The notes under the pieces were generated by a model. It did no database searches, had not been told where the DNA came from, and worked only from the letters and a program-made list of their open reading frames with translations. The position numbers and the translations under genes were made by a program. A DNA stretch of 62,871 bases, counting the filler, from Sluysia triapertura (Eukaryota): assembly GCA_046118255.1 (NCBI GenBank). It is 5 parts of 5 records of this genome, joined end to end, with 100 filler letters (N's around TTAATTAATTAA, not from the genome) between each part and the next. Parts side by side here need not be neighbours in the genome. Positions count along the whole stretch, not along the records: positions 24,138 to 40,174 come from JBJNIA010212587.1; 4 more parts are not named here. The stretch is one strand, 5' to 3'. Positions 30,395 through 31,905 of this stretch are shown piece by piece; the stretch's first letter is position 1, and each line of letters starts with the position of its first letter.

Positions 30395-31610
30395 TTAAAT
30401 AAAGCTATACCGTGATTTAATAATATTATTGGCCATGTTTGGGATAAACAAATTTGGTGCAATAAAAGCTTTTGACTGTAATCAACCACAAGTTGGCAGG
30501 AAGTTTTCCTTAGTTTATACAGAAGACTACCCGGAATCGAGACTAAGTAAGATTCAAATAAAAGAAACTAAAGTCTTTAGTGTATACCAAGAAGTGAATT
30601 TGATAACAGCACCGGTTAGAGAATGTATGGCAAAAAAATCAGTGGCATTATGGTATTGGGGCCATCAAAGCCATTCATCGATAATATAGTTACCACATGT
30701 ATTAAAACCATTTAAAATTTTACAGAATAATTGTAGGGATGCTTTTAAAACGGGATATATCGGATTGGTAAAAGGTGATAAACTAAGAGTAAGAAATAAT
30801 GAAAAAATTATCTATAAGATCAGAACTGCTGGAAACGTACTAACAGGTGGAACATATGAACAAGGATCAATCGAGTACGAAGGAAAAATTTATCACAACG
30901 TAGTTGCCCAAGAAACTTTTGTAGTTTTGATATTGAAAAAGGAACAATGATGTCTAGATCCTTTTGTATAATGGATCAAACAAGTTGTGATACAGGTGAA
31001 TCTACTTTAATATACGAATTAGATAAGTTCCAGTGCCCTTTAATATCTTTGAAACAAATAAAATTTAATTTAGTATCCTAATTTGTGTATCAGAATAATG
31101 ACGATTTACCAATCGAAGAAATAAACAAAAAGGAGCAATTATAACATAAAACATTAGATCAAGTAGAAACTCCTACCATGATGATGGCCAGTAAAGAAAA
31201 ATATGGATTTATTTTCATATCAAAAGGAACTATAATAAGATTTCGACAAGAAATTATTCAAACCAATTACCAAGGTTTTTACTTGTCTGAAAAAAACAAT
31301 ATTACGAGCTAAGAAAGGAAAAGACTCAAAAAATATAAAACTAAACAGTTATTTTAATAATAAGATAGACTTCTACTACCATCACGGATTAATATCTCTA
31401 AAAAAATTTGTCAAATTGTGATTGCCCGAGATTGTCAATTGATTAAAGAAATATTACGAATCCCGATTTGTTCCATTGCTACCATTGGAAGAAGGTGTAT
31501 TTGGTATATTAATAGGAGAAGTGTTATACACTTACAAATGTAAGAAAGTGGAAGTCCAGCTAAGACAAGCTACCGAATGTACAAATGAACTACCAATAAT
31601 ATATGAAAAA
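30395..31610 (+). pseudogene. Chuvirus-like envelope glycoprotein, decayed (endogenous viral element or env of an LTR element)
   Basis: Colinear motifs: signal peptide + AFDC; VYQ; ECMAKKSVALWY(W)GHQSHSSI (cf. YYCGMHSHxS); NCRDAFKTG; AGNVLTGGTYEQG...HNVVAQ; NSYFNNKIDF (cf. AYVNSKF); GEVLYTYKCKKVEVQLRQATECTNELPI (cf. GEVIHxIKCxPVExxxRxTxxCYNELPV). Many stops and frameshifts. Confidence 0.82.
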
Positions 31611-31714
31611 TTGAATATGGATACCATTGAAAAAATTTATCTAACCTCTCCTATAGCACCAATACCAAAGGTGGTTTATATGATAATATGTGCTAATAAT
31701 AATAACAACTCCAA

Positions 31715-31905
31715 GAGGCCAATGGAGAATGTTAAAATTAACGGGAGAACAATATTGCACTTGTAGATACAGAAGCAGTGGCATCATTAATCAATGAAAA
31801 TCACTTAACAGAAGAGGAACAAGGGAATTTTGCAAATCACTTTTCACATCTATCAGGAGTTACTGGAGACGCTATACACATTGTTGGTTTACTTATGAAT
31901 ATCAG
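31715..31905 (+). mobile_element. Retropepsin (LTR-retrotransposon aspartic protease) remnant
   Basis: With one frameshift it reads RPMENVKINGRT-IALVDTEAVASLINENHL...LSGVTGDAIHIVG (DTGA changed to DTEA). Confidence 0.7.

Follow-up and report, generated by a model that had tools for sequence, protein, structure and literature searches.

A dead Bcl-2-like/env/protease fragment, very likely derived from a gag-env-pol Ty3/gypsy retrotransposon, in an animal genome

Planarian Burro/GYPSM1 elements are described in PMC6431247 (citing Grohme 2018 and Jurka 2007) as giant Gypsy elements of dugesiid planarians. Their modules follow the order Ubi/SUMO-like, BCL2, env (akin to the fusion proteins of mononegaviruses) and protease, and they are presented there as the first in-frame env between gag and pol. 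ORF1 has 4,873 aa, and decayed fragments are reported from Dugesia japonica. Descriptions of Burro/GYPSM1 also give an ORF of ~4,900 aa with MATH, BIR, ankyrin and dUTPase domains, in an element of over 30 kb. PMC6431247 also raises the idea that such elements may meddle with host apoptosis.

Other described systems share parts of this layout. GAG-ENV-POL Ty3/gypsy "errantiviruses" with an HSV/gB-type env occur in Nematoda, Bryozoa and Platyhelminthes (PMC13524379); the main text does not contain "Bcl" or "apopto", and the element table does not contain "Burro". Chuvirus G proteins are carried by Anakin, a group of mosquito Pao elements (PMC7642597), and Jingchuvirales glycoproteins form endogenous viral elements (EVEs) in arthropods (PMC10084718). 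Bcl-2 in retrotransposons beyond Burro was not found in the accessible literature searched, a scope that leaves Repbase and most subscription papers outside.

The window analysed here is a 62,871-nt stretch of DNA from Sluysia triapertura, and the locus of interest lies near its middle. We conclude with high confidence that this locus is a dead, internally deleted Bcl-2-like/env/protease fragment of a gag-env-pol Ty3/gypsy LTR retrotransposon with the Burro/GYPSM1 module order. This fragment measures 1.9 kb, and env also occurs as two other pieces elsewhere in the window. The features are as follows.

30011..30337, plus strand: Bcl-2-like domain remnant; top six-frame match to a profile of six relatives, window excluded
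30417..30467, plus strand: hydrophobic, signal-peptide-like segment before the env N-terminal AxDC motif (30468); 11-residue Kyte-Doolittle mean 2.5
30468..31616, plus strand: class III env pseudogene of chuvirus-like/gB type, N-terminal two thirds; PF24664, tblastn with relatives, env profile
31617..31711, plus strand: internal-deletion junction, breakpoint approximate; env C-terminus, TM anchor and most of the env-protease linker lost
31712..31900, plus strand: retropepsin remnant, N-terminal half, with a frameshift near 31754; profile from relatives' protease domains
9433..9813, minus strand: second piece, frameshifted, covering the C-terminal part of env with its TM region; env profile 476-608, 19.9 bits, E 5.8e-8; tblastn
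8876..9262, minus strand: second piece, pre-RT and RT N-terminal part; relatives' RT profile 57.7 bits, E 3.4e-19
4242..4526, plus strand: third piece, env C-terminal part with the TM region; PF24664 29.9 bits, E 1.8e-7; env profile 497-593, 61.5 bits

For env, the earlier note had proposed about 400 codons of colinear glycoprotein motifs from a chuvirus-like class III fusion protein, and both points are borne out. Pfam PF24664 (Monjiviricetes_fusion; curated cut-off 27 bits) matches 30402-31112 (45 bits, E 5e-12, profile positions 8-177 of 653) and 31269-31766 (32.8 bits, E 2.6e-8, positions 365-405), with X written at stops. A profile from nine relatives' envs covers 30417-31616 at positions 8-428 of 624, or 400 codons, colinear across frames 3-2-3, and 8 of the 13 invariant cysteines of seven relatives' envs are kept. 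Sequence comparison assigns the window env to the Monjiviricetes/chuvirus-like class III fusion glycoproteins, and it is now a pseudogene. Reading through it meets five stops (the first at most ~95 codons in) and two frameshifts (~30930-30950 and ~31290-31330), the anchor is deleted, and an intact frame with a TM anchor is absent. The window copy makes no working product. The fold was modelled on the intact relative P0005, not on the window copy (pLDDT 74.6); the model's matches to herpesvirus gB (E 1.1e-14) and to chuvirus G (E 4.3e-43, its best BFVD fold match) show that the fold of this relative's env is class III.

Relatives of this env were recovered by an exhaustive phmmer search, which gave 35 hits at E<=0.001, most of them short fragments. 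One of these, P0032, in which the profile detects no env, is probably a false hit; it is counted within the 35. A word-based search for homologs of the N-terminal piece of env found 0 among 394 candidates, and PDB sequence searches yielded no env relative. An alignment search with env detected at least two loci in metagenome contigs (L001 and L002 below are handles for loci) and no loci in viral and prokaryote contigs.

Downstream, env is cut short before its TM anchor and is followed by an aspartic-protease remnant, both as the earlier note had read them. From the env ELP motif to the protease Asp there are ~60 codons in the window, versus 292-339 residues in seven of eight relatives and 535 in the other; we therefore estimate that ~230-280 codons were deleted. 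A contig of the public run X1, identical over 31575-31859, crosses the deletion junction, so an assembly error is unlikely there, but X1 is possibly the window's own source sample. With a profile of 22 protease domains from relatives, 31751-31894 is the top match in six frames (11.2 bits vs -7.4 for the next). With X at the frameshift near 31754 the remnant reaches 37.6 bits (E 2.6e-8), the sole locus reported among 250,224 junction windows. Its active-site motif is non-canonical, its 3' end is cut by unrelated host-gene sequence, and a Pfam scan of both frames gave no match.

The sequence adjoining the protease remnant consists of Sec24C/D-like fragments (31900-32605, plus strand; PDB Sec24C, E 3.2e-12 and E 1.5e-4). 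The frame changes near 32100 and the helical domain is apparently missing, so this is probably a duplicated pseudogene piece. We considered whether the protease remnant belongs to this Sec24 fragment and rejected it, given the protease profile result and a Sec24 start at ~31900.

Upstream of env lies a feature on which the earlier note did not remark, as it did not on the two further env pieces. In 6 of the 35 hits, a Bcl-2-like helical domain with a terminal BH2-like motif stands just before the env signal segment. These six domains were chosen by eye from the BH2-like motif and used to train a profile. Leave-one-out tests among them gave 20-55 bits, and P0045, unseen by the profile, scores 30.7 bits at the same place before env; a search of 7,995 candidates with the profile brought back just 4 of its members. 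Pfam Bcl-2 places five of the six domains below its cut-off (E 1e-3 to 0.2) and gives no match for P0016. The six-relative profile matches Bcl-xL at E 7.4e-6, and 60 of the 60 matches shown belong to the Bcl-2 family. A model of the P0025 domain (pLDDT 74.5) has the Bcl-2 fold in all of its best 25 VIA rows (Z 9.4-6.3), led by BHRF1 (Z 9.4, rmsd 4.2, 123 aligned); the first unrelated row follows at Z 6.2, and VIA Z under 13 can be generic for helical folds. Foldseek with the same model gave no match at E<=0.001, and the rows it listed are of the Bcl-2 family. Sequence comparison and the predicted fold together establish Bcl-2 homology for the upstream domain of the relatives. The idea that a Bcl-2 domain is undescribed in such elements was rejected; it is already in PMC6431247.

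Within the window, the corresponding region is degraded. The BH1 position near 30161 is broken by a stop, a BH2-like motif is present at 30287-30310, and one frame change separates the domain from env. The remnant scores 9.2 bits versus 3.8 for the next match, and 0 of 200 shuffles score as high (shuffle maximum 4.9); hhalign assigns it a probability of 79% and a pairwise E of 1.6e-5. A Pfam Bcl-2 scan of the window's 30011-30337 piece found no match. From the BH2 end to AxDC there are ~52 codons in the window and 45-78 in seven relatives. We assign 30011-30337 as a putative Bcl-2-like remnant; the score is modest, and position and spacing bear much of the weight.

The Bcl-2-like domain has a patchy distribution. 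It is lacking in at least nine relatives that have sequence before env (P0004, P0006, P0008, P0009, P0010, P0014, P0020, P0030 and P0039), and no relative here combines it with a full pol in one sequence. All five Bcl-2-like domains that cover the site lack the glycine of BH1 NWGR, which makes canonical BH3 binding doubtful; the basic residue is retained. In all seven sequences, a hydrophobic segment begins 24-56 residues downstream of BH2. In L001 (61-4266) we observed gag, a zinc knuckle, a ubiquitin-like domain, a Bcl-2-like domain (by eye) and a single in-frame TGA that lies between this domain and the env signal segment; the TGA is a mutation or a read-through site.

The gene order of the relatives bears directly on the locus. 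A protease follows env in 7 of the 35 hits (P0004, P0006, P0007, P0008, P0009, P0010 and P0030). In P0004, P0010, P0030, the cluster member P0039 and locus L002, a single frame continues through RT, RNase H and integrase, all with Ty3/gypsy-type Pfam domains. Gag with a zinc knuckle precedes env in several relatives, and, taken as a group, the relatives join gag, env, one or more proteases, RT, RNase H and integrase in a single frame. Further upstream, several relatives have a weakly matched ubiquitin-like domain (Pfam ubiquitin E 0.031 in P0025 and 0.0047 in L001); the profile of these domains reaches a best E of 0.023 against PDB, in rows that are ubiquitin-like. Most of the relatives that have a full pol are compact (2,146-2,855 aa), and P0039 has 4,844 aa with ankyrin repeats. 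MATH, BIR and dUTPase are not listed among the relatives' matches.

Several features of the relatives were recorded as side observations. Five polyproteins (P0006, P0007, P0009, P0010 and P0039) have 2-7 retropepsin-like domains each, some after integrase, a trait of which we saw no mention in the Burro section of PMC6431247. By eye, the frame of P0004, P0010 and L002 extends beyond integrase to encode a hydrophobic segment, then a small domain and finally a TM-like helix, which suggests a second membrane protein. NCBI lists the P0004 Gypsy polyprotein under a Flavobacteriaceae MAG; it is probably eukaryotic contamination of a bacterial bin.

The remaining copies in the window agree with this order. 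In the second copy, the RT piece lies 171 nt downstream of the env piece on the same strand, and the protease between them is missing; a Pfam scan of 8876-9262 gave no match. Env thus stands upstream of pol on the same strand as env-protease at the locus, as env-RT at 9813-8876 and in the seven hits named above, and the window's protease and RT remnants fit the profiles of the Ty3/gypsy-type relatives. The earlier note had called glycoprotein-then-protease an atypical order that may reflect rearrangement. The order of the relatives, together with the env-then-RT order of the second copy, indicates that it is native; it is the gag-env-pol order of the closest relatives and is published (PMC6431247 and PMC13524379). 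Env follows an integrase in 0 of the 35 hits. A search for copies placed after an integrase, as the note had advised, would have failed for the wrong reason. The LTR-element context that it proposed is upheld. Its wish to see copies linked to pol or LTRs is answered in part: pol linkage is present in the relatives and in the second copy, and no LTR pair was found at the locus. Specifically, 26000-36500, L001 and L002 contain no LTR-like repeat or pair, and profiles detected no gag, ubiquitin-like, RNase H or integrase remnant at the locus. The segment 29500-29990, which has minus-strand skew, was considered as an integrase and rejected, with no match to gag, RT, RNase H or integrase profiles.

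Env phylogeny was addressed with trees of 26 and 14 rows, the other short fragments being left out. The window falls among retroelement envs, separated by a split of 98/97 from three stand-alone G proteins and P0033, and an AU test rejects its grouping with the three stand-alone G proteins (p-AU 0.016). With just three stand-alone G proteins, of which Tacheng Tick Virus 4 G alone is named, the tree samples viral G thinly. The best retroelement env matches at E 1.5e-20 and 33% identity over the matched stretch; Tacheng Tick Virus 4 G, the one hit that is a named chuvirus G, matches at E 7.1e-8 and 27%. The branch leading to the window env is long (1.1-1.4), no relative exceeds 35% identity to it, and the trees give it no firm position inside the retroelement group. 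With this thin viral sampling, its nearest relatives appear to be retroelement envs and not exogenous viral G proteins.

These results bear on two origins that the earlier note had held open. A plain chuvirus glycoprotein EVE, lying beside an unrelated protease remnant by chance or rearrangement, would account for a Pfam family named for Monjiviricetes, a real chuvirus G among the hits, a chuvirus G as the best BFVD fold match of a relative and the absence of any LTR seen at the locus. It is largely refuted, and we regard it as very improbable: the env-protease order recurs in the seven hits, the Bcl-2-like domain sits at the expected spacing, the second window copy joins env to RT, the AU test rejects the stand-alone G grouping, and no viral N or L family was matched in 96 window pieces (20 plus 76 of 116 selected from 326 stop-free stretches). 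With an env nearer to retroelement envs than to the named chuvirus G, and with the stand-alone G grouping rejected, the locus is poor evidence both for a chuvirus infection of this host and for a lineage-specific capture. If anything less credible still is an independent, recent capture of env by an LTR element in the host lineage. The long branch, low identity and unsettled position of the window env would allow it, and gag-env-pol elements are not monophyletic in pol (PMC13524379). The env clade, the gene order and the upstream Bcl-2-like domain are, however, common to relatives from other samples, which indicates an old inherited module.

The carrier and the fate of env raise two further alternatives. 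An Anakin-like BEL/Pao element with a chuvirus G, the type of carrier the note had named for mosquitoes, has precedent in those insects (PMC7642597). P0033 adds to its appeal: by eye, its env is preceded in the same frame by a sequence resembling a gag of BEL/Pao type, Cys/His knuckles included; this gag reading has no Pfam support, and P0033 is possibly a gag-env layout in BEL/Pao. We consider this carrier highly improbable, since every pol-bearing relative is Ty3/gypsy-type with no Pao peptidase family listed in the relatives' Pfam results, the window protease and RT remnants fit the profiles of those relatives, and P0033 falls outside the window's group. Hardest of all to credit is a domesticated, secreted env acting as a host antiviral decoy. 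Loss of the TM anchor would give a secreted ectodomain, and solo glycoproteins have been proposed for such a role in mosquitoes (PMC7642597), but the five stops, two frameshifts and early first stop count against it. The fragment very likely belongs to the gag-env-pol Ty3/gypsy elements, and as a dead fragment of a described element kind it neither dates a chuvirus infection nor demonstrates a new capture.

We predict that an intact element of this gag-env-pol Ty3/gypsy kind would make a single polyprotein. A putative internal signal peptide would send the env ectodomain into the ER lumen, as expected from membrane-protein topology. The env TM helix would then bring the chain back to the cytosol, so that Gag and Pol would both be cytosolic. 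Proteolysis would release the parts of the polyprotein, and env may fuse particles with new cells.

A role for the Bcl-2-like domain is more speculative. Cellular Bcl-2 proteins carry a tail anchor at about the same distance after BH2 as the hydrophobic segment here, and by this position the segment may serve both roles. After signal cleavage it could remain on the Bcl-2-like domain as a membrane tail anchor, and the domain could act within the producing cell to dampen its death or its innate signalling; taken jointly, we would stop somewhat short of favouring these two proposals. The L001 in-frame TGA between domain and segment counts against a dual role. Poxvirus Bcl-2-fold proteins are signalling inhibitors, and with the NWGR glycine lost and the basic residue kept, the domain may act in their manner and not as a BH3 binder. 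More tentative again, and doubtful on balance, is the broader proposal that the Burro module, with its ubiquitin-like, Bcl-2-like and class III env parts set in frame between gag and pol, is no peculiarity of planarians. It would instead identify compact, enveloped Gypsy elements of a lineage that is widespread and reaches into this host, with a viral-style Bcl-2 anchored by the env signal peptide. A single hydrophobic segment would then route the fusogen and tether a death or immunity modulator.

The window host is an AT-rich animal, and a rhodopsin-type GPCR is encoded in the window. This single-exon gene (41390-42901, plus strand, 503 aa) has an Atlas score of 0.96 to 7tm_1/Srw clusters, whose taxa are mixed and are no evidence on the host; it had no Pfam match and no homolog among 7,017 candidates. 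In the public run X1, 12,544 contig records map to 26000-32550, 20-86 variant contigs occur at listed sites within the element, and depth drops sharply at ~31913. The variant contigs and the depth drop are consistent with repeat-family behaviour; depth in X1, possibly the source sample, is not copy number.

A variety of other features were observed in the window. The 100-nt gaps at 11454-11553, 24038-24137, 40175-40274 and 51694-51793 hold an artificial 12-base all-frame-stop spacer between N runs, and a plain gap lies at 45405-45561; the window pieces may be on different contigs. A GC-richer cluster of long unannotated ORFs (12683-16575, plus strand; 160, 288, 114, 304 and 136 aa) includes, by eye, one type I membrane-like and one RING-like stretch. 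No significant Pfam match was found in the four ORFs scanned, and the cluster is possibly another mobile element. We also identified a Sec7 domain piece (17996-18520, E 2.6e-18), three overlapping minus-strand ORFs with no Pfam match and raised X1 depth (27476-29062), a plus-strand ORF of 273 aa with 93-nt (31-aa) repeats (32930-33751), a hAT-like transposon remnant with a BED-finger (34247-35830), fn3 exons (36895-37403) and a Tc1/mariner remnant (37628-38480). No Rfam match was found in the window.

More broadly, chuvirus-like G matches in invertebrate genomes can be Gypsy env, and gag-env-pol context should be checked before they are counted as viral fossils. The six hits, P0045 and (by eye) L001 provide a set of divergent Bcl-2-env modules, which make the apoptosis idea of PMC6431247 testable on a 130-residue domain. 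If the host is non-planarian, the known range of the Burro layout widens.

Compared with known systems, the Jingchuvirales EVEs (PMC10084718) and Tacheng Tick Virus 4 G share the Pfam family and class III fold of the window env, whereas they differ in tree group, and the viral G has 27% identity versus 33% for the best retroelement env. Anakin (PMC7642597) likewise has a chuvirus-like G as the env of an LTR element, but its pol is BEL/Pao and the pol here is Ty3/gypsy. The Bcl-2 proteins of large DNA viruses (BHRF1, A179L, CNP058; B14/A52 type) resemble the model of the relative in helical fold. The domain of the relatives differs in being embedded in a retroelement polyprotein and in not keeping BH1 NWGR, and its function is putative. 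The elements of PMC13524379 have a gB-type env upstream of pol and a Ty3/gypsy pol, as here, and live in non-insect hosts; the window copy, unlike them, is defective. Burro is planarian, which the window host may not be; full-pol relatives are mostly compact, several with 2-7 protease-like domains, and MATH, BIR and dUTPase are not listed for them. Compared by description only, Burro/GYPSM1 and the locus share a BCL2-like domain ahead of env and an env before protease. Several relatives, though not the window, may add a ubiquitin-like domain (weak matches), and one relative, at 4,844 aa with ankyrin, stands beside the 4,873 aa of Burro ORF1.
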